Shown: one piece after another, positions 12,817-62,131 of the stretch
Position numbering within the stretch: position 1 is the first letter of the stretch
How the letters are laid out: every line of letters starts with the position of its first letter
From: Oscillochloris sp.
GTDB taxonomy: Bacteria > Chloroflexota > Chloroflexia > Chloroflexales > Chloroflexaceae
Direction: 5' to 3'
Assembly: GCA_012032775.1 (NCBI GenBank)
Contig: JAAUQO010000002.1
Span: forward strand, 4,659-68,658
Length of the DNA stretch: 64,000 bases
Translations under genes and position numbers: made by a program
Notes under the pieces: model-generated
The model's database searches: none
The model's input: only the letters and a program-made list of their open reading frames with translations
What the model was told of the DNA's origin: nothing

Positions 12817-14175
12817 TCATAACAGCGGCAACATAATCTGGAAGATCGGATCACCCCAGGCGGCGTGGATCGGCCCATTTGTGCCGTCGGCGCTGTTGGC
12901 TTGCAGGTAGATGAGTTTGCGATCCGATCCCGCCGCAGCCAGTTCTTCATAACCCAACAGGCGATACATCTGCTCGCGCGGGTTGTCGAGTGCGCCGTCG
13001 CGGGGTTGCAGTGGCAGCGCGCTGCCGTTGCGCGTCGGCGATGCGTCCAGGTACAGGTTCACGCCGCCCGGCACGCTTGTACCGACAACGGTTGCCTGTA
13101 TTTCCAGCCCGCTGTTGGTCGGCGTAACACGAATCTGCTCAAGTTGCGGGCCGCTCGGAAGGCTGTACGGCGCCGCAGTTACGCGCAGCGCGTAGAGCAT
13201 CGCAGCGCGATTTTCGGGCCAGAAGCGCGTATCAACTTCGCTGTACGGCGGGTAATGGCCTTGAACGCCGATCTCGTAGGTGAAGGCGGCAACGCCTAAT
13301 TCGGCATAGGCCCAATCGTCGAGACGCCCTGAGTGGGGGTACAATTCGTAGGCGCTGATCGGCGCGTAGCCGTTGAATGCCGCCATGCGAATTGCGAGTT
13401 GACGTAAGGCTTGATCATTCGGCGCCGGCTCGTCGGTTTGCGCCCAGGGATAGAGCACCAGATTGCCGTAGGTATGCACACTGAGCAAGACGCCGGACGT
13501 TGTGTCGGGAACGGGTTGATCGCCGAATGCCGTGCGACCGGGATAGAGTTCGCGCAGCAGCGCCATAATCGCCTGAGTTTCCGGCTCGGAGGCCGGAGCG
13601 GCGCCGCGATAGTTGATCGAGCAGGGATCGTCGCTTGCGCCGACGCCACCCCAGGCATAGGGAAAATTGCGATTAAGGTCGATACCGCGACAGGCGTAAC
13701 CATCAACGATCCGGGTATTCTTGCGGGTTGGGCCGGGCAAATCACGGCCATCGGGGTTCATGAGCGGCACCACCACCACGTCGTGTTCATCAAGCATCCA
13801 TGTGATGTCGCCATCCTGGCCATAGCCGGCAAGCAGCAGATCGACAAAGCGCATTGCGATCTCGACGGTCGGCATTTCGTTGGCGTGCATGGCTGCGATT
13901 ACGGTCAGCACCGGTTTCGGGCCGGACGAATGCGTTCCAGTGATGCGTAGAGCGAAGAGATCGTGGCCGGCGCCGCCTGAATAGGTACGCTCCCACGAAT
14001 CGCCGATGTCGATCAGTCGGGCCAGGCTCGGATACTGCACAACGCGCTCATGCATCCACTGTTCGACTTCGGCCACGCTGCGATACTCGGCCGCAGCCCG
14101 AGTAGGTTGCGCCGGCAGGCAGACGACGATGATGAGGATGACGGCAATGATGTAACAATAGCGGTATAACGGCAT
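12817..14175 (-). CDS. Secreted M14 zinc carboxypeptidase
   Basis: HxxE context IAAMHANEMPTVEIAM, then NPDGR and SVHTYGNLVLYPW. Signal/anchor MPLYRYCYIIAVILIIVVCLPAQPTRAAA. Start set at ATG 14175. The protein ends ...IFQIMLPLL. Confidence 0.85.
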   Translation of the reverse strand: MPLYRYCYIIAVILIIVVCLPAQPTRAAAEYRSVAEVEQWMHERVVQYPSLARLIDIGDSWERTYSGGAGHDLFALRITGTHSSGPKPVLTVIAAMHANEMPTVEIAMRFVDLLLAGYGQDGDITWMLDEHDVVVVPLMNPDGRDLPGPTRKNTRIVDGYACRGIDLNRNFPYAWGGVGASDDPCSINYRGAAPASEPETQAIMALLRELYPGRTAFGDQPVPDTTSGVLLSVHTYGNLVLYPWAQTDEPAPNDQALRQLAIRMAAFNGYAPISAYELYPHSGRLDDWAYAELGVAAFTYEIGVQGHYPPYSEVDTRFWPENRAAMLYALRVTAAPYSLPSGPQLEQIRVTPTNSGLEIQATVVGTSVPGGVNLYLDASPTRNGSALPLQPRDGALDNPREQMYRLLGYEELAAAGSDRKLIYLQANSADGTNGPIHAAWGDPIFQIMLPLL

Positions 14176-14238
14176 AAGTCTCACTACTCTCTTTCTACGA
14201 AGGGCAAGACGTTGTTGCAGAATAACAGCTATCGCGGA

Positions 14239-15009
14239 ATGCTCGTGCTGATTGTAAGCTGCATCGTCCTTGGTGTGATTGTGCTGCGCACTCAATCAGC
14301 CTCGTGTTCCGGCTTTGCGCTGCCATTCGCCGGGCCGTGTATGCGGCTCCTTTTTATCGGCAACAGCTACACTTCGGTGAATGATTTACCGGCGATGCTG
14401 GCAGGCCTGGCGCGTTCAGGCGGGCATCGGCTTGAAACCGCTGCGCTGACGAATGGCGGATGGCGTTTGGCCGATCATCTCGCGGCGACGGAAACACTGG
14501 ACACAATTCGCTCATCGCAATGGGATTATGTGGTACTCCAGGAGCAGAGCCAGATCCCGGCGGTGGAAGCACTTCGCACAACTCAGATGTATCCGGCGGC
14601 GCGTGCCTTGATCCAGCCGATCGAGGAGTCCGGCGCGACGCCGTTGTTCTTCGTGACATGGGGCCATCGCGGTGGCTGGCCGGAACGCGGGTTGCCGGAT
14701 TATCGGCCCATGCAGGCGCAGATCCTTCAGGGCTACAGCGCTCTTGCGAGCGAGCTTGCTGTGCCGCTTGTGCCTGTCGGCAGCGCCTGGCAGGCGGCAG
14801 TCCGCGAGTACCCACAGCTCCAATTGTGGCAATCAGATGGGAGTCATCCCAGTGCGCAGGGGACGTATCTGGCCGCCTGTGTCTTTTATGCCGTTCTGTT
14901 CCAAGAAAGCCCGGAAGGATTGCGCTACACGGCAAATCTGCCCCCCGTGATCGCCCGCGACCTACAGCAGATCGCTGGGCGGATCGTGTTTCCTGTTGCC
15001 GGCGAATAG
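14239..15009 (+). CDS. SGNH/GDSL-like hydrolase family protein
   Basis: LLFIGNSYTSVNDLP (block I) and DGSHPSAQGTYLAACVFY (block V). The start is ambiguous: ATG 14239 gives a signal-like MLVLIVSCIVLGVIVL, ATG 14341 gives MRLLFIGNSY. Confidence 0.65.
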   Translation: MLVLIVSCIVLGVIVLRTQSASCSGFALPFAGPCMRLLFIGNSYTSVNDLPAMLAGLARSGGHRLETAALTNGGWRLADHLAATETLDTIRSSQWDYVVLQEQSQIPAVEALRTTQMYPAARALIQPIEESGATPLFFVTWGHRGGWPERGLPDYRPMQAQILQGYSALASELAVPLVPVGSAWQAAVREYPQLQLWQSDGSHPSAQGTYLAACVFYAVLFQESPEGLRYTANLPPVIARDLQQIAGRIVFPVAGE

Positions 15010-16086: not shown

Positions 16087-16093
16087 TAAGTTT

Positions 16094-18579
16094 TTATTTC
16101 ACCAAAAACGGCAACAATACCCGATAGGTTCCATCGGGGCCAGACACAGTTTGCGCTTCGCTGCGTGCCACAGCGGCGCCGTTCGTATCACGGGCGACGA
16201 CCATCAGTCGGTACTCTGCGTCGGCCTCAAGATCGCTCAATTCGGCCGTGGTTGCGCCGGCTTCCACCACACTGTGTAACTGCCAACCAACGGCGAACGG
16301 CCCACGCAGGTAAATCCAGTGGCCGGCGATCTGGTCGGCGCGGCTGCCGTTCCAACGCAGCTTCAGGCGATTGCCGGCGGCGATCGTGCTGAGCGGAAGC
16401 GTTTCCAGTTCCGCAGATTCAACCAGGGCCGGCGGTACAAAGTGACACCACTCACCTACGGTTGGCGTACGCGGTCGATCGAACCATGTGGCCAGAAACT
16501 CATCCCAACTGCTGTCACGCACAAAGGCGTAGCTCGTTGTAACCTGCACCGGTTGGTTGTTTAACGGCGTCCAGACGGCGTCGAGCGGTACGGTCTCGGT
16601 GTAAATACTTGAGCGCCAGGCCACGGCATCGGGCGAGTTGGCCGGGAGCGGCGCAAGTACGGTAAAGGTTGCATTATAGTCCCAGACTTCCTCCGGCTCC
16701 AGGTAGGGATTTCCGACCCGGAAACTCTTGACAAGGTCACGCAGCAGCCTGCCGACCTCCTCGGCGGCGGCGTTGACTCCGTCAGGGTCATTCGGGCTAA
16801 AGCTGTTGCGCAAGTTCACCACAAATGGCCCCAGGCCGATCAATTCGTCGGGCGGACCGAGGCTGAGATTCTGGCGCCCGCACTGCGTGGTATCGACATA
16901 CTGCCCACTCTGGGTGGCCTGCGCAATCAAGTTGCGATGTCCGGATTGAATGGCGCGGATCAGGGCATCGGCGAGATCGCCGGCGGCGCGGCAATTGCCG
17001 CGATCTCGGTCGCACTTGCGGCGAAGATCGCATTCGGGTGGCGATCGTTCAGATTGCGTTGGTAGCGGATCACAATTGCCTCGGCGACTTGCGCCGGGGT
17101 GTTGGCGGGCGCCATCAGGGCCAGGTATTCGTCGTAGGGGGCGGCCAACCAGGCGTAATTCGGCGAGGCCACGAACATCTCGGCGCTGTTGCGAACTTCG
17201 TACAGTGTGTCGAGATTGCCCTGAAAACACTGGTCGAAGAAAATCAGATCGAGTGGATCCGTGCCGTTGGCGGTCGCTGCCAGCAACGCACGTCCCAGGG
17301 CAACCGTGCTCATATAACCGCCGTCGGTCACATCGCCGGGGGTGGCATCCATGCCTTTCGGCAGCGCCGGCAACTGGCTGCTCAAGCCTGCTTCGGCGAG
17401 GGCGCTATTCTGCTCCGGCCAGGCCAATTCCGGCGCAAGGGCCAATCCGTGGCCCATAATGCTCAGGTACTCGCGGTCGGCAGGATAGGTGCTGCGGGCA
17501 TAGGTGATAAACCACGTCAGCACTTCTTCGGCGGCGCTATTCACCTCATTCTTGCCGAACTGTGTCGCCAGTGCATCAAGATTGACGACCACACCCTGGT
17601 CAATCGCCAGCAGTCGGCTATCATTTGTGTTGGCGCCGTCCATCAGTGCGACAACCTGTGCATTCGGGTTGAGCAAGGTTCCACGGCGCAGCCGTTCAAG
17701 CACGATCGGTAGATTCGGGCTGAGATCGTTGTCGGCCGGGAAATAGACCATCAGCAACACCGACTGGTTGGTCTGGGTTACCGCCACAAGTGTTGATTCA
17801 AGACTGCGCACTTCGGCCGGGTTCGCGCTCTGAATTGGGACAACCAACTCGACCTGGATGCGATGGCTCAGTCCTGAGGCAAGGCCATCGAGAGTGTAGG
17901 CGCCGCTTTGCGCGTTGGTAGTGCGACCGTGGAAAGTGTAGGTATCGCCGCTGTCGGTTGCATAGCTGATCGCATAGTAGGCGTCGGGAAGATTTGCCGT
18001 TGTCGGCTCCCAGGTGATCGTGATTGAATTTGCGGTGATGCTGCCGACGCGCAACTCACGCGGCGGTGTTGCTTGTGTATTCACCCAATCCGGGTCGATT
18101 CGATTGAGGCATGTACGGGTATCGCTGCGCCGGCTGAAGAGCGCGTTATAGCTCAGGTTGGCGGCGATATTGCGTTTGCTCAGGCTGCAAACTGTGGGCG
18201 GAACCGGACCGATAAGTTGATTGCCGGCCAGATTGAGCGTTCGCAGCCCAGGAAAATCAGGGAGCGGGCCGAAAGCGTTGCCACGCAGTTGATTGCGCGG
18301 GAGTTCCAGGGCGGTTACCCGGTTGTTTTGACACGTCACGCCGAACCAATCACAAGGTGCGTTCGGCGATGCGGCCAACCAGTTGGTTGCGGTAAGCCAA
18401 TTCTCACCGCCGGTACGAGCGTAAAATTCCAGCAATGCCGTGCATTCCGCAACCGAGACAGCGGCAGCAGTACAAAGATCGGCCGGCGGTTGGGCGGCAC
18501 TGGGCGGCGCCCAACCGGCAATGATCAAAAGCACGCAAACCAGTATCATGTGCGACGGGCGCAACACTATGAATTGCAT
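16094..18579 (-). CDS. Secreted LRR + FN3 + clostripain-like (C11) cysteine protease with C-terminal beta-rich domains (apparent 1-nt frameshift ~16979-16992)
   Basis: ORFs 16960..18606 and 16094..17230 join across the GC run GCCGCGCCGCCGGCG (...ATEIAAIAA|AAGDLADALIRA...). Signal peptide from ATG 18579 (GGGGAG SD). Plant-type LRR cap (CDWFGVTCQNNRVTALEL), FN3 (ITITWEP), C11 His/Cys motifs (SIMGHG ... LIFFDQCFQGNLDTLYEV). The protein ends ...YRVLLPFLVK. Confidence 0.8.
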
Positions 18580-18749
18580 ACAAATCTCCCCGCCTGACGG
18601 CGTCAATTGAACAAGGGCATCTCCGGCACTTCGCTCCGATTCAGCATGTCTTCCGTGCGTTTATTGTAACGCGCTATTGCAGGCAGTACTGGCACTCGCT
18701 GTAGCAAGATGCGGTAGAATCGGCTCATCCACGCAACAGGAGTTTCCTG

Positions 18750-21214: not shown

Positions 21215-23118
21215 TTAGCTCCCGGTGCCGCGCACAAAGATATTCGGCCAGGCTTTGAAGCGAGTGAAGAATGTGTCGCGGCGTACCTCGACCCCATCCT
21301 CAATAATCACCCGATCGATCGTAATATCGCGCCCGCTCCGGGCAACATCGGTCTGGCGGACGGTGCCGCGCGGCAGTGCTGAATCCTCAACATAAACCGG
21401 TTCGGCGGGTGCGCGCACCTCGTTGCTGATCACCGGCCCTTCCATGCGTACCTCGCGGTTGGGCTTGGTGCCATAAAGTCGCACGGCAAGCACCTGATTC
21501 ACCTCATCAACCTCGGTTTGCATCAGCAACCAGTTATCGGTATCGTTGACGAACTTCAGATCGTTGACGCCGGTGTAAATCGCCGCATCGAGACCCTGGC
21601 CGTCGCCGTATGGTCCGAGGCCGAAGCGATCATACCAACTGATATAAAAGGCGTGGGCATGGCGCTCGGTGATCGGCAGACCGGCCCAGAAGGCGGCTCG
21701 GAAAACCGTGGTGCTGTCCTGACAGACACCGCCGCCCCACTCAAGCTGGGTGCGATTGCCGATGATCGCGTAGCCCTCGACAAAGCCGTTTTCGGCATTA
21801 ACCTCGCCGAGTTGGCGGTTAAACGAGAACTCTTCGCCGGGCGCGATCAGCACGCCGTCCATCTGAACGGCGCCGGCCTTGATATTGGTGATGCGGTATT
21901 CCGCCGAGCCGGCGAAACTGCTCAACCCTTCGCCGACCAGTTCGACGATCCCGAGGCTATTGAGATTGGCGGCGGTGATCTGCGGCTCGATCACATCGCC
22001 GGGAAGTTCCAGCGTGCGAGTGATCGGCGACGGTGTGAACAAAAGGTCGGCGATTTGTGCGGCGGCCTCTTCCTGACGCATACGCCAGCCGGGCACACCT
22101 TCGGTCACAATCTGCACCTGGCCGGCTGCGAAACGCAAACGCGGCTCGGCGGTGCCGGTATCGGCCTGCTGGGCCAGGCCTTCGACGGCGCGGACGAGCA
22201 ATTCTTGATCGACTTGCACTTCGAGCATCTCATCGACAGGTGTGATCCGCAGCAATTCAGCCAACCGGTCGGGCGTGAAGACCCAGCGATTTTCGGCGTG
22301 GATCAACTCAATCGGCGATTGCAGCAATTCAGCGGCGCGGCTCTGGGCCACGACCAATGCCGTATCATGATCAATGGATCGAGTTGGCGGGTACGGAGCG
22401 ATACTTCTTGAGAGTTGAGATTCTGCATTGCCAGCAGAATATCGTTGGCGGTGGCATCGACCAGCAGTTGCGTGCCGGGAGTACTGGGCGTACCGACGAT
22501 GCGGGCGGCGGCGATGCTGAGTGCGGCATCCTGCGGCGCTTGCTCGATCACCGGCGAGAGACTGAGCAGGTAATTCTGCATCGTGGGTAGATCGATCACC
22601 ACGCGCGGCGAGATCTCAAGCCCCTGTTGATACAACTGCCAGAGTTCACGGAGCCGGGTGATCGGATCGCCGCGCCGCCCGGCGGAGACGGCGGCAGCGG
22701 CGGCGCCGGTGATATCGAACTGCGCACCGAGATCGCTCAGGGTCGGCTGCCATGTTTGCGAGCGATACACCAGTGTCAGTGGTTGGCGCACAAAGTCATC
22801 GTGGCGGGCGGCGATCTCGGCGGCGATCTCGGCGCTGCTGCGACCGGCCATCGGCATGCCCTGCACGCTCACGCCGGGTAGTGCCTGGTCGGGATAGAAT
22901 AGATTCAGTGCGTAGGGTAGCGCAAAAGGTGCCGCTACCAGCAGGAGCAGCAATGGTACGAGTGCCGGCCACAGCGAGCGGCGGCGGGTGGATCGACGGC
23001 GGCGCGGTGGGCGTTTCGGCGGTGGTCGGCGCGGCGGCGGATCATCATCGGGCGGCTCGCCATGGCCATGGCGACGACGGATCGGGCCGTATTCCTGGAA
23101 GTAGCGATCGGATGACAT
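21215..23118 (-). CDS. VanW-family protein, membrane anchored (apparent 1-nt frameshift ~22369)
   Basis: ORFs 22303..23118 and 21215..22357 rejoin as ...RTRQLDPLI-HDTALVVAQSRAAELLQ... if one base is restored. Basic Pro-rich N-terminus plus a TM segment. VanW core FSFNRQLGEVNAENGFVEGYAIIGN...GGGVCQDSTTVFRAAFWAGLPITERHAH. Confidence 0.82.
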
Positions 23119-30768: not shown

Positions 30769-32817
30769 CTAGTTTTGAACCGACACCACAGTCGGCAGGC
30801 CGCCGAGGTACTGCAAGCCGCTCAGGGTTTCGGTATACGGGTACTGCAACGCATCGCCGCGGAATGCCTCGATAATGCCGGTTTCAAACAGCACCACATA
30901 CGGCAGTTCGTTCGAGAGGATCTGCTGCAAGTTGTCGGCGACCGTCTTGCAATCCTCGTAGGTGGCGCAGGTCAGGATTTCGTCGGCGAGTTGATCGAAT
31001 TCGGGGTTGCTGTAGCCGCCCGAGTTAAAATCGCCTTTGTCGGTGCGATCACTATGGAAGAATGCCTGCAAGTCGTTCGGGAAGATGCCGACCGACCAAC
31101 CGGCCAGTGCTATGTCGAAGTCTTGCTCCAACACCATCTGGTTGCGCAGTACGTTAAATGCCTTCAGGTCGGTTGTGACCGGAATGCCGATATCCTGCAT
31201 CCAGCGTTCGATCCAGATCGCAAATGTGGAGCGCAGCGGATCGTAGCTCGGTACGGGCGCCAGGAGCTTCAGATCCGGTACGGGCTGCCCGTCCGGCAGC
31301 AGCAAACGACTGACATTCTCGGTCTGCTGGCTTTCTTCGTTATAAACCGGCGGGCTGCCGGCTTCCCAGCTAAAGCCGGCGGCGCTCAGCAGTTCGACGG
31401 CTTTCGCCACGCGCTCGCCGCTACTCATCGCGTTGCCGTCTTCATTCATGCCCCAGAGCGGCACATCGCCGTTGTACCAGGCGGCATTGCCGGGGGCGAC
31501 AAAGGTGTTGGCCGGGTGGGCCACGCCCTGTAGCACATTCTGGGTCACGAATTCTTTGTCGATCAGGGTGGCGATCGCCTGGCGGAATGCGATACTATCC
31601 ATCGGCTGGCGGCGGGTGTTGAAGGTCATGTAGCGATAGCCGTTGATCGGGTTCTGGATAACGGTGATCCCCGGCTGATTCTCAACTTGATTGCGTAAGC
31701 CGCCTGCAAGCCGAGCGGGTTGAGGATAAAGTCGATCTCGCCGTTCTTCAGGGCCAGAATGGCCGCATCCTGCGAGCCGTAAACCGTATAGACCGTACTT
31801 TCGCTGTGCGGGCCGATCACATAGTCGGCGATCATCTCGCTCACCGGCTCGCCGATGCCGATCTCGTAGTTGTTGCCCTGCTCGACATACGCACCATTGG
31901 CGAACACCGATACCGCCGCGCCGTTTTGGAAGAAGCTGGGGTTGGCGATATTCTCGATGAATGCGCCCGGCTCGCGGCTGCCCTGCATCCAGCCGGCGGC
32001 GGTCGGTTCGTCGGCCGGCTCGTAGTTGTAAAGAATATTCATCGCCTCGGTCAGGCGCTCCTCGTAGGCGGTCTGATCCTCGGCGCTCGCGCCTTCCGGC
32101 AGCGGATCAAGGGCGCCCACGGCGACCCGCGCATCGGCGACAATCGGCGCCCAGTAGGCCTCCTGCATGATCGGCCCCTGGAGCGCGCCCCACTCATGCA
32201 CGGCCAGCCCCGGCTCCTGCGAGTAGTACAGCTTGACGGTGTACTCATCGGGAGCCTCGACCCGATCGAGGAAATTCCAGTCGAAGATCGAACCCCAGTT
32301 GCCGGGCAGTTCCATCTCAACCACGGTATTCGCGGTAAAGGCGAAGTCACGGGCCGTTACCGGGGTGCCGTCGCTCCAGGTGGCGTTGTCGCGCAGCGTG
32401 ATCTCGGAAACCCAGAAATCGCCCTCTTTCGCCAGCGGACGGGTCGGCATCTCAAGCGCCAACTGCGGAATAATCTCGAAGCGGCGGTCGGAGAGGGCGT
32501 ACAGCGCGATCCGTTGCGGGTTCAGGATGTACGAATTCCACTGCGTGCCGTTCGGCCCCAGATACGACCAGTAGTTGGTCGTGGTGATGTCGGAGAAGAT
32601 CCCGATGCGGTAGGGCGCATCACTCATCTCAGCCGCAGCGGGCGCGGTGGTCGGCTCGGCGGGTGCAGGTTGGGCGGCGGTCGGCTCGGCGGGTTGGGCG
32701 GCGGTCGGTTCAGCGGGGCGCCGCAGTCGGCGCAGGTGGGGCATCTGCACAGGCAGCCAGAATCAGGGCGCTGATCAGCAGTAGCGCTGCCAGCAAGCGG
32801 TTGCGGTGATGAGTCAT
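30769..32817 (-). CDS. ABC transporter substrate-binding lipoprotein, family 5 (peptide/nickel type), two apparent frameshifts (~31703 and GGGG run 32715-32718)
   Basis: Three ORF pieces (32710..32910, 31626..32750, 30769..31629) rejoin. Lipobox MTHHRNRLLAALLLISALILAAC. Tandem AEPTAAQP linker. SBP_bac_5 body with junction ...ILNPLGLQ-GGLRNQVENQPGITVIQNPINGYRYMTFNTRR. SD AGGAAGG before ATG 32817. Confidence 0.85.
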
Positions 32818-38626: not shown

Positions 38627-39198
38627 CCCACTGCTTACCCCATACTCCTGCGACCGATGTGGTGTGTAGAATGGTGGTGGTTGCATTGTACTAGTATGTC
38701 GATTGCGTGCAGTTAAGAATCAGACGAATAGTGTATCGAAATTTTGACCTTACCCCAGGGAGTGCTATTCATTTCTGATTGTAAGTCAAATTCCGTCGAT
38801 CCCGGTTCATGAACGAGTGATATTGAGTTCAATTTCGGTTGAGCCTACTAAGAATTATAGTATTCTGAGCGTTCCATCCCGGCTGCATTGGGCAAGGCTA
38901 TACCGCGCATGTACGGGTTGTGAAACCTTGATGCCCGTGGCTACTGCGGGTGGTCGTATTGAACGGCATAAGCAATTTCTTAACCGTTTCTGAACTAAAT
39001 AGCAATGGTAGAATTCCTTACCATGTTCTATGATTTTTACATGTTTGTATTGTAATTAGCTCCAGTTTATTGATCTACCGCTTATTCGGCGTTCGCCTCT
39101 GCTCCATCGTAATCAACATTCAATAGCCTCGAATGTTCCTTCGCATGCCAGGGCATTTTCACGTATCCTTGTTTTGGGTTTAGCATTTTGCACGTAGG

Positions 39199-47436: not shown

Positions 47437-47592
47437 GATATGCCTCACCTACCCGGCGGCCCATACCGCCGCTCGCAGGTTGTACCGTCGAAAAGTCCAC
47501 GATGATACGGGGAAAGGCAGGAAAGGTTTATGCATGTTGCTCCGTCCTTCTTATGCGAACGACAACATCCCCATCACAGAAGGAGAACGATC

Positions 47593-50500
47593 GTGCGACA
47601 TACCCACCCCCTGGCAATGCTCGCTCTTTGTATGCTGTTGGTATTTACCGGCACAATGCCGGCAACTGCGCCGCGTGCCTATGCCGGCCCCGGCGACTCG
47701 CCGCCGCAGCGCAGTAGTGTGTATAACGGCAGCAGTCGCGTGCAATACACCTACCGCCCGGACTTCAACATTAGTGGTGCGATGACGATCGAGGCATGGG
47801 TGTACCGCGAGGATTCCGCCCGTTGCGAAACGATCCTCTCCAACAATTACGCCAACTCGTACTGGTTGGGTTTCTGCCCGCGCCCGCGTTTCTACCGCCT
47901 CGGCGGTTCGGCGATCGATGCAACCCGTGATGTGCCGGCCTATCAGTGGACGCATGTGGCGGTGAGCTACGACGGCGCCACGGTGCGCTTTTACATCGAC
48001 GGCGAAGCGGCCGGTTCGGCGGCCCTTACGGCGAGCGGCAGCGGCGCGGCAAATCCGCTCATCGTCGGCGGCGACAGTGGCGGCTTTTACTTCGACGGCG
48101 CCCTGGATGAGGTACGGCTCTGGACGACGGCGCGTACCCAGGATGCAATTCAGGCCGGGATGTTCGCCGAGATCCGCGCTGCCGACGGCCTGTTGGCCGC
48201 GTTCGGCAATGGCGGCAACCTGGAGGAGATCGCCGGGATCAGCGGCAGCGTCTCGGGAACTGTTGCCACGCAAGTGATCGGTATGCTGCCGAGCGATTTA
48301 ACGATCCCGCAACTGCCGATTGCGCCGACGATCGACGGGAGTGTGGCCGCCGCCAGCGAATATATCGGCGCCGAACGCATGGTGCTGCGCTACCGCGACG
48401 GCGAGACCCTGCGCGATATGCCCGCGTACCTGGGTTACGACGCCGACAATCTCTACATCGGCGTACGCTTCGACGACCCGGCCAGTATTGCCGTCGAAGA
48501 TACGAACGACTACATCGCGCTCATGCTCGATCCGAACGGTTCGCGTGACGAATTGGCACAAGCCGACGATGTCCAGATCCGGGTGCCGCTCTACGCAAGT
48601 GCGCCGAGTTGGCTGGTTGGCGACGGAGCCGGCGGTTGGGTTGCACCGGCCGCGCCGCCGGAGTCCGGCCCCAGTGGCCTGTGGGATGCCGCTATCGGCT
48701 CCTGTGCCTCGGAGTTCGCGCCGCTGTGCGTCGAGATCCGGGTGAGCCGGTCGCTCTTTGGGCCTTTAAGTGAGATCGACAATCTGGCATTAGGACATTT
48801 CCGGCTCGATCTTGGTGGCGGCGACGCGGATTATCTGGCGCCGGGACAGGCCCAGGTCGCCGCGCCGGCTACATGGTCGCCGGTGGTATATGGCGGCTTC
48901 AGCGCAACCCTGCCGCGCGCACGCTTCTATGGTTGGGTGCATGATGTTGCGCTGGGATTTACCCCGATCGCCGGGTATGATGTGCTGCTTTACTACGGCT
49001 CGACGCCACTGTATCGCACGACAACCGGCGCCGACGGCAGCTTCTTCTTCAATGTCCCGATCCCGACCGGCGCAACCCTGCGGATCGCCATCCCCGGCTG
49101 CACCGGCTGTCGCTACGAGACTGCCACCAGCGGGCGAATCGATCTGGCGCCGACCAACCTCGGCTCGCTGCAAGTCGATTTCCCCGGCTGCGACAGCGGA
49201 ACTTGTCGTTATGATACCGTGCAATTCCGCCTGTTGCAGCCGATCGGCGTGACCAGCATCACAGGTTACAGTGTTGATCGCGGTTCGCCGCCGGTGCGCC
49301 TGCGTAACGATAGCGACCTGCGTACACCCGCCACGCGGCTACGGATCAACGGCGTGAATCTGCACGAGGCGATGGATGTCTACCTGGCCCGCGACATCCT
49401 CAACTGCACCCAACGCCCGCCGCGCGACGAATGCGAACGGAGCATTGTCCCGGTGCTGGATCGGGCGCTCGACGGCACATGGATCGAGGTGGAAGTGCCT
49501 GAATTCGCGGCGCCGATCCCGTACGGCGGTTACTACTGGGGGATCTATGATCGCTGGGTGCGGCCCGGCAACTCGGGAATTGGTACTGCGCCCTGGATCT
49601 ACGGCGCTGATTTCAGCCTCGTGCCGCCGAGCTACCCCGAGTTGTACGGGTTCGGCTTCGAGAACGAGGACGACGGCGCCGATATCGACGAGTTCTTGTC
49701 GGTGTACGGCAACAACGCCTATGTCTGCATCGGCCTGAAGGTCGGCGACACCTGCGCCGGCGTACGCGCTCCCGACCCGCTCTACTGGGGAATCTGGTTC
49801 CCGGTGTTCCACATCTGGATCGACCAGGCCAATGGCAGTTGCGTCGGGATGGCCGCCACCAGCCTGTTGATGGCTCGCTCGCTGCTTGATCCTGAGCGGT
49901 ATGATGCAAACGTGTTGTATCCGGCTGGATTTACCACGATCGGTAAACCGAAACGCTGGGATTACGGCACCTTCGGGCCGGTCTTCCAGGCGCCCGCGCC
50001 CGCCAACAACTGGAGCGAGATTCGCCGCAATCACGGTGTGCAAACCAGTGCCGAATTTCTGTCGGCCAGCATCGACGGGATGATCGCTGGGCCGACTGCG
50101 GTATTGGCACAGGTACGATCGGCCCCAACCAACTATGTGTTGTGTATGTCGCCGGGGCTTGGTTCGGGCCATTGTGTGACACCATTTGGGGTTGAGGACA
50201 TCAGCCCGACGCAGACCAACATCAAGATCTACGACAACAACTTCCCGAACAATCCGAACCGGATCGTCACGATCGACCCGAGCGCCGATACATTTACCTT
50301 CGCGCGTAGCAGCGGCGACTGGAGCGGTCGGATGATCTACGCAATTCCGATCAATGTCTGGCAGCGCGGGCGTTCCATGCCGCTCGACATTCCCGGCATC
50401 GTCACAACCGCGATTTTCGGCGCGGCCGACGGCATCTACAGCACCTCCGACGGCGGGCGCTGGGGCTTCGAGGATGACGGAACTGCGGTTGAGAGTATCC

Positions 50501-51219
50501 CCGGCGCAATCAGTTTCTCGCCCCTCAGCCAGGGCGCCGCAGCCGGCCGGGCCGCAGTTCTGGGCTTGCCGACCGCTGCGCCGTCACCCGAGGCGGATAT
50601 TCGCACCCACGGCGGCGATTACCTGTTCTTCGCGATGCAAGACGGCGTGGTGCTGCAACTCGCAGTTGATGCTGCGACGGACGGCGAGCGTGACGCTGCG
50701 GCACTTGGTTACGACGGCGGGAGTTTGCGCTCGCTTACTTTTAGCCCGCAGAGCGAACGTAACGCAATCGAGCCGCGGGTGGGCATGGAGTTGGGTGAGC
50801 GGGCGCGTGTGCTGTTCCGCTGGCGTGGGCTGAATATGCCCGGCGGCAGCGGCGAGTTCACGGCCCTGCCCGAAGCCCGTGGTGCGGAGTTCAGCAATGA
50901 TACCGGTAGTGAGCTGAGCTACGAGATTGTGTTGGAAGTGATCGACGGTGAAAGCGGCACGGCAGCCAGCCGCACCTTCGGCCCGTTCACCGTCCCAAAT
51001 GGCGCAACCCATCGCATGGTTATCGCCGATTGGCCGGCGAGCACCCAGTTGCTTTCGACGATCGATCTGAATGGCGACGGCACCCCGGAGAGTAGTGCGC
51101 CGGTCACAGGCACTATCTGCACGCCGCAGGATACCGACGGCGACGGTGCGCCCGATCTGTGTATTGCCGCTGCGCCTGCTGTGAACAACACGATCTACCT
51201 ACCGTTGCTGGCCAAATAG
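47593..51219 (+). CDS. Very large secreted multidomain protein (LamG/ConA-like lectin, CBM9-like, carboxypeptidase-regulatory-like and possible papain-like domains, Asp-rich Ca-binding-like repeats)
   Basis: GTG 47593 with GAAGGAGA SD and signal peptide. LamG block ...AMTIEAWVYRED...WTHVAVSYDGATVRFYIDGE...FDGALDEVRLWTTAR. Later DLNGDGTPE...DTDGDGAPD. The protein ends ...NNTIYLPLLAK. Confidence 0.8.
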   Translation: MRHTHPLAMLALCMLLVFTGTMPATAPRAYAGPGDSPPQRSSVYNGSSRVQYTYRPDFNISGAMTIEAWVYREDSARCETILSNNYANSYWLGFCPRPRFYRLGGSAIDATRDVPAYQWTHVAVSYDGATVRFYIDGEAAGSAALTASGSGAANPLIVGGDSGGFYFDGALDEVRLWTTARTQDAIQAGMFAEIRAADGLLAAFGNGGNLEEIAGISGSVSGTVATQVIGMLPSDLTIPQLPIAPTIDGSVAAASEYIGAERMVLRYRDGETLRDMPAYLGYDADNLYIGVRFDDPASIAVEDTNDYIALMLDPNGSRDELAQADDVQIRVPLYASAPSWLVGDGAGGWVAPAAPPESGPSGLWDAAIGSCASEFAPLCVEIRVSRSLFGPLSEIDNLALGHFRLDLGGGDADYLAPGQAQVAAPATWSPVVYGGFSATLPRARFYGWVHDVALGFTPIAGYDVLLYYGSTPLYRTTTGADGSFFFNVPIPTGATLRIAIPGCTGCRYETATSGRIDLAPTNLGSLQVDFPGCDSGTCRYDTVQFRLLQPIGVTSITGYSVDRGSPPVRLRNDSDLRTPATRLRINGVNLHEAMDVYLARDILNCTQRPPRDECERSIVPVLDRALDGTWIEVEVPEFAAPIPYGGYYWGIYDRWVRPGNSGIGTAPWIYGADFSLVPPSYPELYGFGFENEDDGADIDEFLSVYGNNAYVCIGLKVGDTCAGVRAPDPLYWGIWFPVFHIWIDQANGSCVGMAATSLLMARSLLDPERYDANVLYPAGFTTIGKPKRWDYGTFGPVFQAPAPANNWSEIRRNHGVQTSAEFLSASIDGMIAGPTAVLAQVRSAPTNYVLCMSPGLGSGHCVTPFGVEDISPTQTNIKIYDNNFPNNPNRIVTIDPSADTFTFARSSGDWSGRMIYAIPINVWQRGRSMPLDIPGIVTTAIFGAADGIYSTSDGGRWGFEDDGTAVESIPGAISFSPLSQGAAAGRAAVLGLPTAAPSPEADIRTHGGDYLFFAMQDGVVLQLAVDAATDGERDAAALGYDGGSLRSLTFSPQSERNAIEPRVGMELGERARVLFRWRGLNMPGGSGEFTALPEARGAEFSNDTGSELSYEIVLEVIDGESGTAASRTFGPFTVPNGATHRMVIADWPASTQLLSTIDLNGDGTPESSAPVTGTICTPQDTDGDGAPDLCIAAAPAVNNTIYLPLLAK

Positions 51220-55576: not shown

Positions 55577-55997
55577 AAACAAGGGCATCATGGCCGGGAT
55601 GTTCCTGCTGTCGATGATTGGCAAGACGCGTTCCAAGAGTTGTGCTATCGACACCGCAATCAGGACGTTATGAAATTGGAGGTTGAGTTGAAATGTAAAC
55701 CGGACGAATCTGATAGAGGGTAACTCCACAGCTCAAAAATACCATAGCACGGGCGCGATAGCTTGATCAAGCCAACTACACGCTATCGATAATGAATACT
55801 TTGTTATATAATTCGCACGCTCTACCCACTCGGTGCTGCTTTTGAATGCTAAGAAACAACTTTTAGCCCTATGGATCGTACCTGGTGAATTTTGGTGTCC
55901 GGCCTTTGGCTACTGTCCGGTTTCCAAGGCGATGTTGAAAACAAAGATTGATTCCCTTGTATGTTACAATCCAGTTGTGAGCGATCATGCTGATGAT

Positions 55998-56585
55998 ATG
56001 CAACTCTATGCCGCCTGCGGCGATGAGGGTAGTCTACGCCAGGTAGATGCCTTCGAGCAGTTGTGGGCATTCTTGTACCGTCGCGCATGGGCGATGGTGC
56101 ATGATCGCCGCAGCGCTGAGCAACTCGCCGCCGATTGTACCCAGGTGGCGCTGATCAAAATCCATCGCAGCTATGGGCAATGCCGTGAGCCGGAGCGCTT
56201 TCGGGCCTGGGCGGCCCAGATTATGCGGCGCACGGTGATCGATGAGCTACGCCGGCCTGAACATCGGCCGCAAGTCGATCTTGAGGTTGCCGCCGCGCTC
56301 CCGTCCGATAATCCGTCACCGGAAGCGATCCTGGCTGATGCCGATCTTGCGCGTGTGCTCCGTGCAGCGATCACGGGCCACGGCCTGAGTGATCGCTCGC
56401 AGCGGGTGGTGATCGGACGCTTTTTCGCCGAGCAAAGCGATGAAGTACTTGCCGCTGCCGAACAAGCCCTGGGTGCCGCGGATCTGCGGCCAAGCCACAT
56501 CCAGGTTACGCGGGCCAAAAATCTGGCTAAACTGCGCGCCGATCCGGCGCTGCTGGCGCAATTGCAGGATCTCCTTGCCGGTTAA
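55998..56585 (+). CDS. ECF-type sigma-70 family sigma factor
   Basis: About 195 aa from ATG 55998. Region 2 (...FEQLWAFLYRRAWAMV...DCTQVALIKIHRSY) and region 4 (LSDRSQRVVIGRFFAEQSDEVLAAA...VTRAKNLAKLR). Confidence 0.8.
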   Translation: MQLYAACGDEGSLRQVDAFEQLWAFLYRRAWAMVHDRRSAEQLAADCTQVALIKIHRSYGQCREPERFRAWAAQIMRRTVIDELRRPEHRPQVDLEVAAALPSDNPSPEAILADADLARVLRAAITGHGLSDRSQRVVIGRFFAEQSDEVLAAAEQALGAADLRPSHIQVTRAKNLAKLRADPALLAQLQDLLAG

Positions 56586-56720
56586 GGAAAGGTTTTCCCA
56601 CAGCCCCGCGTCATTATAGTAGCAGATGCGCGGTCGCCTGTTCAGAAGGCCGGTGTACACAGTCGCTTCGCCAGGCGGATGAGCCGCCGCTATGAACCGA
56701 ACCACAGTAAGGATACGGCT

Positions 56721-57467
56721 ATGGCCGAAGGAGAGCACAACCGGGCAGCGCAGCGTTTGGCGGAGATCCTGACGGTCGGCCATGATCCCGCCGCCTGCAT
56801 GGCGTGCCTGGACAATCTGGAATTGTATGTCGCCGCGCAACTCGCCGGCGATGATTACCGCGCCCGCTTCCCAATCGCGGCCGATCATCTTGATCGTTGC
56901 GTCGAGTGTGCCGAAGCCTACGCGCTCACCTACGACGATCTGCTTGAAGCGCTGCAACCGGCGCCGGATCTGCCGTTGCCGACGCCTGATTTTAGTTTTC
57001 TTGAACCGTATGCCGCCGGTGCATTAAGCCCCGCTGCGTTGCGTCGCAATCGAACGACCAGCTTGCCGAAGCTGATCGCCGCCGCCCTTACACCCCTGGC
57101 AAACGGCCTGCGCTTGCAGCTTTCTCAGGCCATTCTGGCGGCCCTTATGCCGCCGGTGCCGTTAGCGCTCCGAGATGCCGCCGAGCAGGCGCCCCTCACG
57201 GAGCTTTTGATCCCTGCGCCCGCTCCCGGGATCGCGCGCCTGGAACTACGGATTTATGCCGATCTGGTTGATCCGGCGCGGCGTGATCTGCGGGTGCGCG
57301 TCGAGCTACCCGATCGCGACTGGCCGGATCTGGCCGGGATTGGGTGTACGCTGCACCTCTCGACAGGTCCGTATCAGATCATCAGCGACCCATGGGGCGA
57401 GGCGGTCGTTACCGGCATTCGGGCCGAGGAACTGGATAACCTTGCGCTGGAAATACGGCGCCCGTAG
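56721..57467 (+). CDS. Putative zinc-binding (ZAS-type, HxxxCxxC) anti-sigma factor, apparently cytoplasmic
   Basis: AAGGA SD before ATG 56721. CMAC ... LYVAAQL ... HLDRCVEC (nt 56886-56909) matches the zf-HC2 anti-sigma signature. It lies directly downstream of the ECF sigma gene. Confidence 0.65.
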   Translation: MAEGEHNRAAQRLAEILTVGHDPAACMACLDNLELYVAAQLAGDDYRARFPIAADHLDRCVECAEAYALTYDDLLEALQPAPDLPLPTPDFSFLEPYAAGALSPAALRRNRTTSLPKLIAAALTPLANGLRLQLSQAILAALMPPVPLALRDAAEQAPLTELLIPAPAPGIARLELRIYADLVDPARRDLRVRVELPDRDWPDLAGIGCTLHLSTGPYQIISDPWGEAVVTGIRAEELDNLALEIRRP

Positions 57468-57505
57468 CGCAAAAAAACAGCTTGTTCCAGCCTGCCGCAG
57501 GCAGA

Positions 57506-59917
57506 TCATCCCGTTACGTCGGCGGCTCGCCCGAGTGATTGCCTAACGCGTGTAATCTGATAGGCGGCCCAGAACTCAGGCGCGCTGAAGGGTTGGCTGC
57601 CGTCGGCTCTGGTATACGCTCGCAAGGCTAGTTGGGCCGTGCGTAACATCGCCGCCGGGTAGGGTTGATCGCCGGCTGCTTCGAGTTCGCGGTAAAAATA
57701 CTCCATCAATAAGCGGGCCGATTCATCCTCGACCGGCCATTGGGTCACCAGAACTGCCTGTGCGCCGGCGCTTAGAAAGGCTCGCACCAACCCGATCGGT
57801 TCATCGCCGCGCAGCACCCGGCTCATCCCGCTGCGGCAGGCGCTCAATGTAACCAGTTCGGCGTGTAAGCGTGGCCCGGCCAGCACATCAGCCGCCGTAA
57901 GGCGCTGTCCATCGCCCAGCAGCAGCGCCGATTCAAGCGGTTCATCGAGCCGGAATTCGCCGTGGCATGCCAGGTGTAAGCGCCGATAGTGCGGTGCTTC
58001 GGCCAGTAATCGCGCTGCGGCGTCGGCCCCCGGCGCAAACAGGTCGCCGCCGCAAATCCGTACCACCACCTGGGCCTCGACAGCGGTATGGCGCAAGTCG
58101 CCGCTGTCGTCGCCAAGCGCCAGACACATGCGCGCTGCGCTCGCGCTGGGTTTGGGCGAGCGCAGTAACATCGTGACACTCGGCGTATAACTCAGTTCGA
58201 GCGCCTGCTCGATCAGTGCTGTGCCGTCGGGATGGTGCAGCGCGACAAAGGGTAATTGGTGCAAGGGGCCGTGCGGCACGATCGTGACCCGCTCGGCGCT
58301 GCGCAGCAGATCGCTTACCGGGCCGAACAGGGCCTCGGAGCAACGCCGCAAAATCGCCGGCCGTAAAAAGCGCCTTCCGTCGCTCAGGTATGCCGAGGTT
58401 CCGTGGAGTATATTCGGATCAAGTGGACAGATGTGGGCGCGTAATCCGCTGTGGGTAAGTGCGAAAAGCACAATTCCGGCCGGCACCGCCACCGCTTCAC
58501 GGACGCCGCTTGCCTCGGGTGGAATCGCTGCCAGCAGCGCTCGTTCCGGCCCGGCCACACCTGTTGTAAAGTAGGCCAGTACCAATTCGCCCGGCTGCAG
58601 GGCCGCACATGCGCTCGCCGCATCGATCGGCATAACCGGTTCGGCAACTGCGCCGGCCCGCCGCGCCAGCAGATCGGCAAAGGCGCGCGCGCGCGCACGC
58701 TCGGCATAGTGAAAGGCCGTGGCCGGATCATCGTCGGCAAGGGCGGACAGCACACCCTCTTCGAAAATTGTCTGCCAGCGCCCCATCAACCCGATCAAGA
58801 GTCCCTGGTCGGCCAGGGGCGCCCGATGGGCCTCGACGGCTGCGGCCGCTTCAGCCAGATCAGCGCGCGCTGCGGCATGATCGCCCAGCCGGCGCCGCGC
58901 ATGTGCTACGCGGTAACGCAACATCGGCGCAATATCACTTCGCCCGATGTTGGCGGCCAGTTCCAGTGCCGCACCATACTCCAGCAGCGCCGCCTGCTCG
59001 TAGCCCTGCGCCTGTTGGGCCAGTCCACGATGCAGCAGCGTATCCACCACATACACCCGCGTCTCCATCAGGTCGAGCGCAACGGCAAAACTGCCTAACG
59101 CATCGGCAACTGCGCCGCTCAGCAGTTGCACCTCGCCGATATTGTTGCGCACCCGGCCCAGCAGATCGGCGGCATCGGCGGCGGTGAAGACCAGTGCCGC
59201 CGCTTCGGATGCCGCCAGCGACTCGTTCCAGCGTCCCAGGTCACGATACACCAGGCCCAATTCCATACGGCTCAACGCACCGCGATACTCGTCGCCCAGG
59301 GCTGCAAAGCGTTCGGCGGCGGCCAGAAATGCTTGCTCGGCAGCGGCATAATCCTGTAATTCATAGGCTAAAATACCGCTGTTCAGTAATGCCCTGGCAT
59401 GGCGCCCGGTATCGCCGCGCCGCTGCCAGATCGTCATACTCGCGTCGTACCAGGCGCGGGCCTGCTGATAATCGCCTTGCATACGGGCGAATACCGCGCC
59501 GCTGTTCAAGGCGCGCCCACGCACCCCTTCGTCCAGATCAGGTTCGTTCAGCAAGGCGGCAAATCCGCTGCGGGCCTCGGCCAGTTGATCGCGCAGCCCG
59601 GCGCCGAGCGCACGGTAAAAACGGAGCAACTGACGGTGTCGGGCCAGATACAATTGCGCAAGCGGAACTTGCTGCACCAGTTCAGTCAATTCCGTCGGCG
59701 CCTGCTGGATCGTCAGTTCAAGTGTTTGTTCAAGTAGTTCGACATAACGCTGCTCAGACGCAGGATCGTCGCTCAGTAAGTGGCTCGCCAGGATGGGTAA
59801 GATTGCCGCCAGTGTTGTCCGGCGGCGCGCCGGCTCCAGATTCACCAACGCCGAATCATCACCGGCGGCGAGTGTCTGGGCAACCCTGTGTAATAGCTGG
59901 TCTGCGTGATCGTTCAT
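57506..59917 (-). CDS. TPR-repeat protein with C-terminal CHAT (caspase-fold) protease domain
   Basis: 803 aa with multiple TPR-like units in the N-terminal two thirds. C-terminal CHAT with His and Cys motifs (RLHLACHGEF ... ELVTLSACRSGMS ... AFLSAGAQAVLVTQWPV). Confidence 0.85.
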   Translation of the reverse strand: MNDHADQLLHRVAQTLAAGDDSALVNLEPARRRTTLAAILPILASHLLSDDPASEQRYVELLEQTLELTIQQAPTELTELVQQVPLAQLYLARHRQLLRFYRALGAGLRDQLAEARSGFAALLNEPDLDEGVRGRALNSGAVFARMQGDYQQARAWYDASMTIWQRRGDTGRHARALLNSGILAYELQDYAAAEQAFLAAAERFAALGDEYRGALSRMELGLVYRDLGRWNESLAASEAAALVFTAADAADLLGRVRNNIGEVQLLSGAVADALGSFAVALDLMETRVYVVDTLLHRGLAQQAQGYEQAALLEYGAALELAANIGRSDIAPMLRYRVAHARRRLGDHAAARADLAEAAAAVEAHRAPLADQGLLIGLMGRWQTIFEEGVLSALADDDPATAFHYAERARARAFADLLARRAGAVAEPVMPIDAASACAALQPGELVLAYFTTGVAGPERALLAAIPPEASGVREAVAVPAGIVLFALTHSGLRAHICPLDPNILHGTSAYLSDGRRFLRPAILRRCSEALFGPVSDLLRSAERVTIVPHGPLHQLPFVALHHPDGTALIEQALELSYTPSVTMLLRSPKPSASAARMCLALGDDSGDLRHTAVEAQVVVRICGGDLFAPGADAAARLLAEAPHYRRLHLACHGEFRLDEPLESALLLGDGQRLTAADVLAGPRLHAELVTLSACRSGMSRVLRGDEPIGLVRAFLSAGAQAVLVTQWPVEDESARLLMEYFYRELEAAGDQPYPAAMLRTAQLALRAYTRADGSQPFSAPEFWAAYQITRVRQSLGRAADVTG

Positions 59918-60082
59918 ACTACCCCGGCAATCAGGAAAGGTCTGCTCGCTTTAGCTCGTCATGGGGTTGGGAGTGTAGGTATAGCCGGTTTTTAAATACA
60001 TGTCAAACGACCCTGATAGACCCTGTATCCTGTATCCGTACCCTTAGCCTGTACCTGCATCCGCAATCTGAAGGAGATATGC

Positions 60083-62131
60083 ATGCTCCGTTCGCTCTTG
60101 TTGATGCTGATTCTGGTGGCGCCGCTGGCGTTCATCGCACCTACCGCAGCACAGCCGGATGGGCCGCCGATCGCGATCGATCTCACGGTATCATTAGAAT
60201 GGGAGCCGGGCGAACTCACGCTTGCCGAAATACTGCCGGCCGATTGTGCTTCACGCAGCAACACCGCCTACAGCGAAGATCTACGCCAGGGGTTACGTGC
60301 GGCAGCCGCCTATTTGTACAGTTACACCCGCGGCACGATCACACTCGGCAATGTGCAGATCTTCAGTGGCGGCGCCCAGTGGGAGCAGGCCGATATTCGC
60401 GTGCTGGCGAGTAGCGGCTACCGGCCGAGTGCATTCGTTGGCGGCAGTGTCGCTACCCCGACTCTGCGCGAGGTTACGCCCGGTCGAGCCGTGATCTACT
60501 ACCCCGGCCCAACGCTGCTCGGCCGGCTCTGGGATGGTAATCCCGAGCGGCGTGGCGCCCGTTGCGGCCCATGGTCGTCGCCGTCCGGCTGGCGCACGAT
60601 CGGCCACGAATTGGCCCACCAGGTGCTGTTTCTCTACGATCAGTATGCCACACTGGAAGGCGCACCCCGGCGCTGTAGCTTCACCGGTTTGGCGCGCAAT
60701 GTACGCCCGAATCTGCTGGGCGGCGCCGATACGCTGATGTCCTACCATTACAGCGCCGATGAATTGTTGCTTACTTCCCCGGCCGGAAATCCGGCCTGTG
60801 CCGGTACCGCGCACGAGCACATCTACGCCGATCGCAGTGAGTGGCAGGCGCTGCGCACCGTATTCCCGTCTCTGCCGGAAACCCCGCCGCCACCTCCAGG
60901 TTCCGATCTGCCGGAACTGCTCGGCGAGATCGATCGGCTTGGACTGGCCGATGTGCAGTTCGCCACTGCGCCACCGGATCGCGATACAACGGCGCCATTG
61001 GTACTCACTGCACCTGCGCCCGCGCCCGCCACGCCGGTCTACGCCGAAGTGTATCTGGTCGAGCGCGACCCGAATAATGGCTTGCAGCAGATTATCGGTC
61101 AGGGTTGGGCGTTGCCCGGCGAATCCATTGCCCCGCCGCTGCTGGGAATCGCGCCGCAGAATGCCAGCCGGGCGGTCGCATTTGTCGAAGATGTTTCGGG
61201 CGGCATGCGCTACGCAAGCCCGCCGAGTGATAGCGGTGCCGGCATCGAGCCTGCAACGGCCGCCGTCAATCTCGGCCTCAGCGCAAGCACCTGGCGTCCG
61301 CAGATCCGGATTATCCCCGAACTCCGGCCGACACTGGTGCTGAGCCAGGATGTGCGGGCAACCGAGGTTGCTGCGCTCCGGGTGGAATTGCAGGATTGCA
61401 ACCGCATGACGAAGAACGTCGAGTTTACGTACTGCCCGGCCGGCGGCAGATGCAGCGGCCCCGCCCTTGTTACCGCCGACGGGGACAATATACTGCGCTA
61501 CACCTTCTACTTCCCGCTGACAAACGGCGCGGCGCCGGCAGCCAGTGTCCGTGGCTATATCCACGCCCGTGAAACGAGTCGTGGTGAAGAGGCGGTGGTC
61601 TGGTATCAAATCGGCGGCGGTGTGGGGCCGGCCCACGGCGATGCCCATGCACCACTGGTAGACGGCCTGTTGAATACCGATCTTGCGCCGGCAACACCCG
61701 GCCCCGCGCGTGATTCGCGGTTGCTCCACAGCCCTACCGCAGTTTGTACGCAATTGCCGGTTACTTCAGGAGTAACGATCTTAGGCAGTCCGTTCAATGT
61801 CGAGCCGGTTGTCGCGACCGAGCAGCAAAGCCGCAGTTGGGGCAGCGATCCGGCTGATCCGCCGCTCAGTATCAGAATGGGCTACACGCCCGATCTTCTG
61901 GCGCGCCTGGGGGTGAATGAGGAAGATCTGGTGTTGTTGCGTTTGAACGCCGATAATCCGCAATTCCCGCCGTTTTGGGAACTGGTCTCGCCGTTGCAAC
62001 TTGCCGGACACGATCGCGAGCTTGATTGGCTGGCGCTGAACGCAATTCCATTTCGCGGCGCAGGTGCGATCGTGGCCCTTGGTTACCGCAATACACACCG
62101 GCTGGGCTTGCCGTTGCTGGCGCAGCCCTGA
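60083..62131 (+). CDS. Secreted putative zinc metalloprotease (HEXXH) with large C-terminal region
   Basis: AAGGAG SD. Signal peptide MLRSLLLMLILVAPLAFIAPTAAQP. Motif WRTIGHELAHQVLFLYDQY. The protein ends ...HRLGLPLLAQP. Confidence 0.7.
   Translation: MLRSLLLMLILVAPLAFIAPTAAQPDGPPIAIDLTVSLEWEPGELTLAEILPADCASRSNTAYSEDLRQGLRAAAAYLYSYTRGTITLGNVQIFSGGAQWEQADIRVLASSGYRPSAFVGGSVATPTLREVTPGRAVIYYPGPTLLGRLWDGNPERRGARCGPWSSPSGWRTIGHELAHQVLFLYDQYATLEGAPRRCSFTGLARNVRPNLLGGADTLMSYHYSADELLLTSPAGNPACAGTAHEHIYADRSEWQALRTVFPSLPETPPPPPGSDLPELLGEIDRLGLADVQFATAPPDRDTTAPLVLTAPAPAPATPVYAEVYLVERDPNNGLQQIIGQGWALPGESIAPPLLGIAPQNASRAVAFVEDVSGGMRYASPPSDSGAGIEPATAAVNLGLSASTWRPQIRIIPELRPTLVLSQDVRATEVAALRVELQDCNRMTKNVEFTYCPAGGRCSGPALVTADGDNILRYTFYFPLTNGAAPAASVRGYIHARETSRGEEAVVWYQIGGGVGPAHGDAHAPLVDGLLNTDLAPATPGPARDSRLLHSPTAVCTQLPVTSGVTILGSPFNVEPVVATEQQSRSWGSDPADPPLSIRMGYTPDLLARLGVNEEDLVLLRLNADNPQFPPFWELVSPLQLAGHDRELDWLALNAIPFRGAGAIVALGYRNTHRLGLPLLAQP

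Follow-up and report, generated by a model that had tools for sequence, protein, structure and literature searches.

How do Chloroflexota keep exoenzymes and adhesins on the filament? To our knowledge, this is not known. A 64,000-nucleotide stretch of Oscillochloris sp. DNA (contig JAAUQO010000002.1; called the window below) bears on the question, as four otherwise different secreted-type proteins encoded there end in nearly the same short hydrophobic tail built around Leu-Pro. On balance, this tail is probably a short, modular tag at the C-terminus of Sec-exported Chloroflexota proteins that serves their surface retention or sorting without a transmembrane helix. The four genes and their tails, the latter read by translation, are:

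12817..14175, minus strand: M14 zinc carboxypeptidase with signal peptide, first tail carrier (Pfam Peptidase_M14, E=5.5e-56)
12820..12837, stop 12817-12819, minus strand: M14 tail IMLPLL (protein end ...IFQIMLPLL)
16094..18606, minus strand: LRR-FN3-clostripain (C11) protease gene, second tail carrier (Pfam Peptidase_C11, fn3, LRRNT_2)
16097..16120, stop 16094-16096, minus strand: C11 tail VLLPFLVK (protein end ...YRVLLPFLVK)
47530..51219 (alternative start 47593), plus strand: LamG giant secreted protein of ~1200 residues, third tail carrier (Pfam Laminin_G_3, E=2.9e-27)
51193..51216, stop 51217-51219, plus strand: LamG tail IYLPLLAK (protein end ...NTIYLPLLAK)
60083..62131, plus strand: HEXXH (GHExxH) metalloprotease-like secreted protein, fourth tail carrier (homologues restricted to Chloroflexota)
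62102..62128, stop 62129-62131, plus strand: HEXXH tail LGLPLLAQP (protein end ...HRLGLPLLAQP)

These are exactly the C-termini given in a preliminary description of the window, LP[LF]L followed by zero to three residues, and the signal peptides assigned there to all four proteins also hold up: the N-termini are signal-peptide-like in 4/4, the LamG protein included. Two of the tails depart visibly from those of relatives. The M14 tail is a truncated form, with two residues after the proline and the terminal R/K missing; its closest homologues terminate in ..ALPLLMHR and ..LPLIRR. In the HEXXH tail, Gly replaces the aromatic residue and the basic end is missing. By sequence comparison, all four window tails read as somewhat degenerate versions of a family consensus.

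That consensus comes from homologues of all four families, in which the tail is kept at ~30-55% identity. The HEXXH family is known from Chloroflexaceae, Roseiflexaceae, Herpetosiphonaceae, and Ardenticatenaceae, all Chloroflexota; 31 of 42 homologues (28-56% identity) end in [WFY]LP[LV][IVL]xR, and about ten orthologues terminate at a conserved ..ALGYR immediately ahead of the tail position. The tail ends 61 of 120 M14 homologues, including proteins labelled Chloroflexaceae and Anaerolineales; Blastocatellia M14 homologues are without it. For the C-terminal 296 residues of the C11 protease, clustering at 50% identity left 72 representatives; 48 of them are tailed, nearly every strong and complete hit included, in architectures of 200 to 3000 residues with varied last domains. 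The LamG orthologue in a metagenome-assembled genome (MAG) of Chloroflexaceae (L001, 4609-8265) ends ..PDLCVAAAPESGNRVYLPLVRR, i.e., ..NRVYLPLVRR. Overall, the tail is seen in the classes Chloroflexia and Anaerolineae, Ardenticatenaceae included. The pooled consensus is nine residues long, [RKQ]-[VIL]-[YWF]-L-P-[LVI]-[VIL]-x-[RK]-COOH, with exactly four residues after the proline (Pro five residues from the end) in 75-80% of tails and 1-7 additional residues beyond the R/K in the remaining ~20%. The preliminary description had denied the tail both a transmembrane helix and a basic end; with four residues after the proline the first point stands, while the second does not, since K ends two of the window's four tails and R/K the family consensus.

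Within the window, the pattern LP[LFIVM][LIVM].{0,4}$ matches 4 of the 44 open reading frames (ORFs) of at least 300 residues, called stop-to-stop in six frames, and none of the remaining 1182 ORFs of at least 30 residues. Across the 19,594 residues of the 44-gene set the core occurs 13 times, four of them C-terminal, against an expectation of 0.10 (Poisson P=4e-6). By predicted location, the tail is on 4/8 extracytoplasmic proteins and 0/35 others (Fisher P=6e-4). The nearest miss, a histidine kinase ending ..FTILLPTLE, falls outside LP[LF]L. The earlier statement that no cytoplasmic protein of the window ends in this way is borne out by these counts.

The window comes from a stromatolite metagenome, and several of its genes are split, raising the concern, voiced at the outset, that corrected frames might move the true stop codons. 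The C11 gene is the sole tail gene affected: a G is missing after 16987, where the same stromatolite-metagenome run, assembled independently (Logan), shows one more G. The mended gene is a single 837-residue ORF with signal peptide, LRR, FN3, C11, and FN3-like domains, and it still ends LLPFLVK; the stops are therefore real, and a frameshift artefact can be ruled out. A DNA element at gene ends, such as a repeat or terminator, is ruled out as well. The DNA of the four tails and of the regions downstream is dissimilar among the genes, and tail codons differ from genome to genome; selection is therefore on the peptide rather than on a DNA element. Single-base assembly errors also apparently split a glutamate synthase, an OppA-like binding protein, and a VanW/PG_binding_4 protein; the split-gene regions besides C11 are 5655-10402, 30769-32750, and 21215-23118.

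Terminal position and secretion were also assessed independently of the four families. Metagenome contigs were scanned with the motif only, as a DNA pattern for YLPLVxR followed by TRR, which covers the three stop codons plus TGG and so includes an internal control. The scan returned 120 stretches, and the 80 loci examined contain 81 matches: a real stop follows 73 times and TGG 8 times. Trp codons are several-fold commoner than stops in coding sequence, and the terminal preference is therefore strong. The matches close long ORFs, and 25 of 38 complete ORFs are signal-peptide-like by a heuristic, the rest being mostly fragments. In the ORFs of every fetched Chloroflexota-type locus, with all seeds and the window left out, the tail is on 14 of 161 signal-peptide-like ORFs vs. 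5 of 542 others (odds ratio 10, P=2.7e-6), and four of the latter five are loose matches to the pattern. In these loci, the comparison of secreted with other ORFs that had been proposed comes out in favor of enrichment. Gene calls throughout are ORF-based.

In its strict form the motif occurs 86 times at a C-terminus and 10 times elsewhere. The non-terminal cases differ in layout. In L040 (4011-6236) a beta-helix/choice-of-anchor Q part precedes it and a second C-terminal domain, of ~250 residues, follows; in P0319 it is at about residue 1010 of 2550, followed by 1500 residues of FG-GAP-type repeats; in L042 (1470-3110) there is a 30-residue extension past it; and in L067 (698-1873) and L104 it stands directly behind the signal peptide. 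From sequence, such cases could be gene fusions or could mark a cleavage site.

The tail is modular, appended to differing last domains, with orthologues both with and without it. The 100 residues upstream fall into 66 unrelated groups among 97 tail ORFs. Carriers include M14, C11, S8, and HEXXH peptidases; beta-helix and pectate-lyase-like proteins; LRR/FN3, LamG, and PKD/CLIPPER proteins; and a small protein described below. An AlphaFold2 model of the window M14 protein, with a predicted local distance difference test score (pLDDT) of 91.6, closes its fold with a beta-sandwich whose end is residue 441, and residues 442-452, which include the tail, are coil (pLDDT ~60) outside the fold. This coil, together with the 66 unrelated preceding groups, rules out the tail as the last strand of a common C-terminal domain. 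A strongly Pro/Thr/Ser-rich spacer precedes ~9% of tails, vs. 1% of background windows. In L042, L043, and L040, 5-8 residues separate the motif from the end of the preceding choice-of-anchor Q domain (NCBIfam NF041518); a CSLREA_Nterm domain is present as well in one tail protein. Choice-of-anchor domains take their name from standing ahead of alternative surface anchors, namely LPXTG, PEP-CTERM, or the C-terminal domain of type IX secretion systems (T9SS) (10.1101/2023.03.06.531300), and a tail directly behind one therefore occupies the anchor slot.

A fifth tail family emerged from the metagenome loci, a small secreted protein of ~92 residues with the pattern GGYDLSWWTVDGGGG..GTIGQPDAG..GGFWxGG plus tail. 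Its members there are:

L123 205-612, L070, L088, L090, L115 3951-4322, and L157-L159 10001-10279: GGFW small proteins

The family has 882 database hits, and the tail is on 118 of the top 120 members. Among these 120, alternative anchors were looked for and none was seen, practically all being already tailed. Two small tail proteins taken from these metagenome loci, scanned against Pfam and NCBIfam (NCBIfam E<=10), had no match, for the tail or otherwise, and an AlphaFold2 model of a small tail protein is too poor for use (pLDDT 58). GGFW genes are located between genes for large beta-helix secreted proteins, and in some C11 proteases (P0306, P0308) the GGFW domain forms an N-terminal fusion. 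At 10308-11108 of L158 and L159 there is an FGE-sulfatase-domain protein that starts with a Pro/Thr linker and has no signal peptide; its gene begins 29 nt past the stop of the small tail protein and has its own Shine-Dalgarno-like sequence.

The distribution of the tail also follows lineage. At loci with a tailed HEXXH orthologue, 5 of 93 other ORFs are tailed, vs. 0 of 170 at loci with a tail-less one, which come from Herpetosiphon species and some related MAGs (P=0.005). To judge from these gene sets, the tag comes and goes by whole genome, as would be expected if it depended on a partner.

Several neighborhoods deserve description in their own right. The HEXXH gene has a conserved one (window 55833-59917, L036; L001-L026) comprising a sigma-70 region-2 protein, an uncharacterised protein, and a CHAT-TPR protein; the uncharacterised protein is 248-262 residues long as called in L036 and the window, and the cluster example from L013 has 339. 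Polysaccharide-type genes adjoin the M14 and C11 tail genes (window 301-4731 and 11289-12719), with no link to the tail shown. Among the genes beside these two are a Wzy_C/O-antigen-ligase-like membrane protein and a GT4 glycosyltransferase, both by Pfam, and, by likeness to the eye only, an NAD-dependent epimerase (2046-2996) and a sugar transferase (3145-4731). Between 36000 and 40000, G+C content is 0.53 vs. ~0.60 elsewhere in the window, with response-regulator and kinase-like genes at 36371-38686.

How might a retention or sorting tag of this kind work? The N-terminal signal peptide seen on carriers would take the protein across the membrane. The unstructured [RKQ]-phi-[YWF]-L-P-[LVI]-phi-x-[RK]-COOH, sometimes behind a Pro/Thr-rich spacer, would then protrude from the last folded domain, as it does in the M14 model. 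A lineage-specific envelope component could read it there as a linear, free-ended peptide; candidates would be receptors or processing enzymes located in the wall, a shared outer layer, or a protein layer. In this way, hydrolases and adhesin-like proteins might stay at the filament surface instead of escaping. The simplest mechanism is for the free C-terminus to dock non-covalently. The tag could not work as LPXTG, PEP-CTERM, GlyGly-CTERM, or PGF-CTERM do, because it has no helix; those signals are membrane-held for their sortase. In a cultured Chloroflexota filament, a shared outer layer and a protein layer lie outside the wall (PMC13319060), and these provide a compartment and a possible docking surface.

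Several points weigh against a retention tag. A partner was sought among recurrent neighbors of carriers by all-against-all clustering of 1020 ORFs, and only ordinary families were recovered: kinases, S8 proteases, an FHA-ABC transporter, sigma factors, and glycosyltransferases. A pattern for sortase active sites (TLxTC-like) found no match in ~1000 ORFs of the fetched loci. The signal-peptide calls come from a crude heuristic, with a background of ~23-30% in two ORF sets, and the taxonomic range rests on MAG labels. The motif is occasionally internal or right after a signal peptide (L040, L042, L067, L104, P0319), and these occurrences may suit a cleavage site as well as a docking tag. The retention role and the localisation are presumed from sequence evidence, and the tail may be kept or cleaved. 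The earlier proposal of a tag for sorting, anchoring, or processing nonetheless fits on every point tested (the tail is cross-family, modular, terminal, signal-peptide-linked, lineage-dependent, and in the anchor slot); with no partner found, any of the three may apply.

Of the other explanations, the one that survives best, though it is unlikely, is that the tail is a processing site, with L-P-x-phi read by an Arg/Lys-specific or sortase-like extracytoplasmic enzyme. This might trim residues beyond the R/K, or cut after the fourth residue and release a dipeptide (compare LPXT/G), resulting in activation, release, or covalent wall attachment. The fixed spacing of four residues after the proline would suit such an enzyme, as would the 1-7 residues beyond R/K in ~20% of tails and the rare motifs between two domains or just behind a signal peptide, where a cut makes sense. 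Two positions after the proline stands a beta-branched or aliphatic residue, at times Thr as in LPXT, and clan CD proteases (C11) are themselves frequent carriers. A terminal R/K, however, leaves no leaving group, and no transmembrane segment holds the substrate; nor was a sortase-like active-site motif found in the ~1000 neighboring ORFs, or a peptidase conserved beside carriers, other carriers excepted.

It is more doubtful still that the tail anchors proteins directly, its seven mostly hydrophobic residues with basic flanks binding the outer leaflet or an anionic wall polymer with no protein partner. The symmetric layout (basic; three hydrophobic or aromatic; Pro; two hydrophobic and one variable; basic) and the unstructured, exposed state of the tail are what such an anchor would have. 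The near-invariant Leu-Pro and fixed spacing, on the other hand, suggest that a specific site is bound, not that hydrophobicity acts in bulk, a stretch of seven residues around a central proline would probably be too short for stable insertion, and lineage-wide loss is more easily explained by loss of a partner.

A proline close to the terminus commonly blocks exopeptidases, and the tail could conceivably be a stability element rather than a localisation signal: a cap that halts carboxypeptidases at the proline, or a degron for a tail-specific protease. Export brings carriers into a space rich in proteases, and many of them are proteases in their own right. Neither the conserved flanking basic and aromatic residues nor the exact spacing would be required of a cap, however, and a cap leaves the anchor-slot position, the Pro/Thr spacers, and the lineage-wide loss unexplained; it is considered very improbable. 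Finally, that the tail arose by chance, or is an artefact due to frameshifts, gene calling, or a DNA element at gene ends, is already refuted by the window statistics, conservation in four families, codon variation, the excess of stops over TGG, and the tail's survival in the mended C11 ORF, even though assembly frameshifts do exist in the window.

Chloroflexota are abundant in soils, sediments, mats, and wastewater, and their envelope is unusual. A surface retention tag could reach well beyond the present window: it is possible, at somewhat less than even chances, that the Chloroflexota have a phylum-wide surface-display system of their own, in which a nine-residue, helix-free tag is recognised by a component of the wall or shared outer layer, either a receptor or a transpeptidase. 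Extrapolation from 5 tailed ORFs among 93 in the flanks and 4 among the window's 44 genes puts it on perhaps ~5% of genes in positive lineages. With a simple tag to mark a large share of the proteins that are secreted or at the surface, thousands of MAG proteins now called "hypothetical" would be better annotated, and the division into tail-positive and tail-negative lineages is a handle for phylogenetic profiling toward the envelope machinery. Use as a very small display tag may also be possible.

How does the tail compare with known systems? The preliminary description did not recognise it as a named system, and this assessment is upheld: NCBIfam scans of the four window proteins (E<=1) found no sorting-signal family, nothing in Pfam or NCBIfam falls over the tail in these proteins, and full-text literature searches found no description of it. 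Because it lacks a transmembrane helix, it does not belong to the LPXTG, PEP-CTERM, GlyGly-CTERM, PGF-CTERM, or MYXO-CTERM class, and with the scans empty these named signals can be ruled out.

The likenesses are nevertheless instructive. Like the LPXTG/sortase signal of Gram-positive bacteria, the tail is a C-terminal tag on signal-peptide-bearing hydrolases and adhesins, with a Leu-Pro core and a basic end, often behind a Pro/Thr-rich spacer and positioned behind choice-of-anchor domains. Its consensus, however, is L-P-[LVI]-[VIL]-x-[RK], with Gly absent and Thr rare at the fourth position; the hydrophobic transmembrane segment is missing, only four residues following the proline in 75-80% of cases; and no sortase was seen near tail genes in the ~1000 ORFs of the fetched loci. 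With PEP-CTERM/exosortase, GlyGly-CTERM/rhombosortase, PGF-CTERM/archaeosortase, and MYXO-CTERM/myxosortase it has in common a many-substrate, lineage-restricted, modular tag on unrelated secreted proteins. Those signals consist of a motif, a transmembrane helix, and a basic cluster, and are cut by an intramembrane or membrane enzyme, whereas nine residues make a helix impossible, and their models were unmatched in the window proteins (E<=1) and the small proteins (E<=10). The T9SS C-terminal domain of Bacteroidota likewise marks the C-terminus of secreted hydrolases and adhesins, is typical of its phylum, and provides an alternative "choice of anchor," but it is a folded domain of ~80 residues (about 70-100), removed by PorU; the tail has nine unstructured residues, no common preceding domain (66 groups in 97 ORFs), and no Pfam or NCBIfam hit.

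In form, the tail also resembles the short motifs read at a free C-terminus, such as PDZ ligands (e.g., outer-membrane protein YxF for DegS), the ssrA/Tsp tag, and the peroxisomal targeting signal PTS1 (SKL): all are very short, unstructured, and at a fixed distance from the carboxyl end. By analogy with these, it is probably read by a peptide-binding groove. It differs from canonical PDZ ligands in that its last residue is mostly R/K rather than hydrophobic, and from these motifs generally in that it apparently serves extracytoplasmic retention of many proteins. The tail would thus belong with C-terminal sorting and retention signals, to which it would add a form working without a membrane-spanning segment; if dedicated machinery were found, it would constitute a new class of prokaryotic sorting signal beside LPXTG, PEP-CTERM, PGF-CTERM, GlyGly-CTERM, and the T9SS C-terminal domain.

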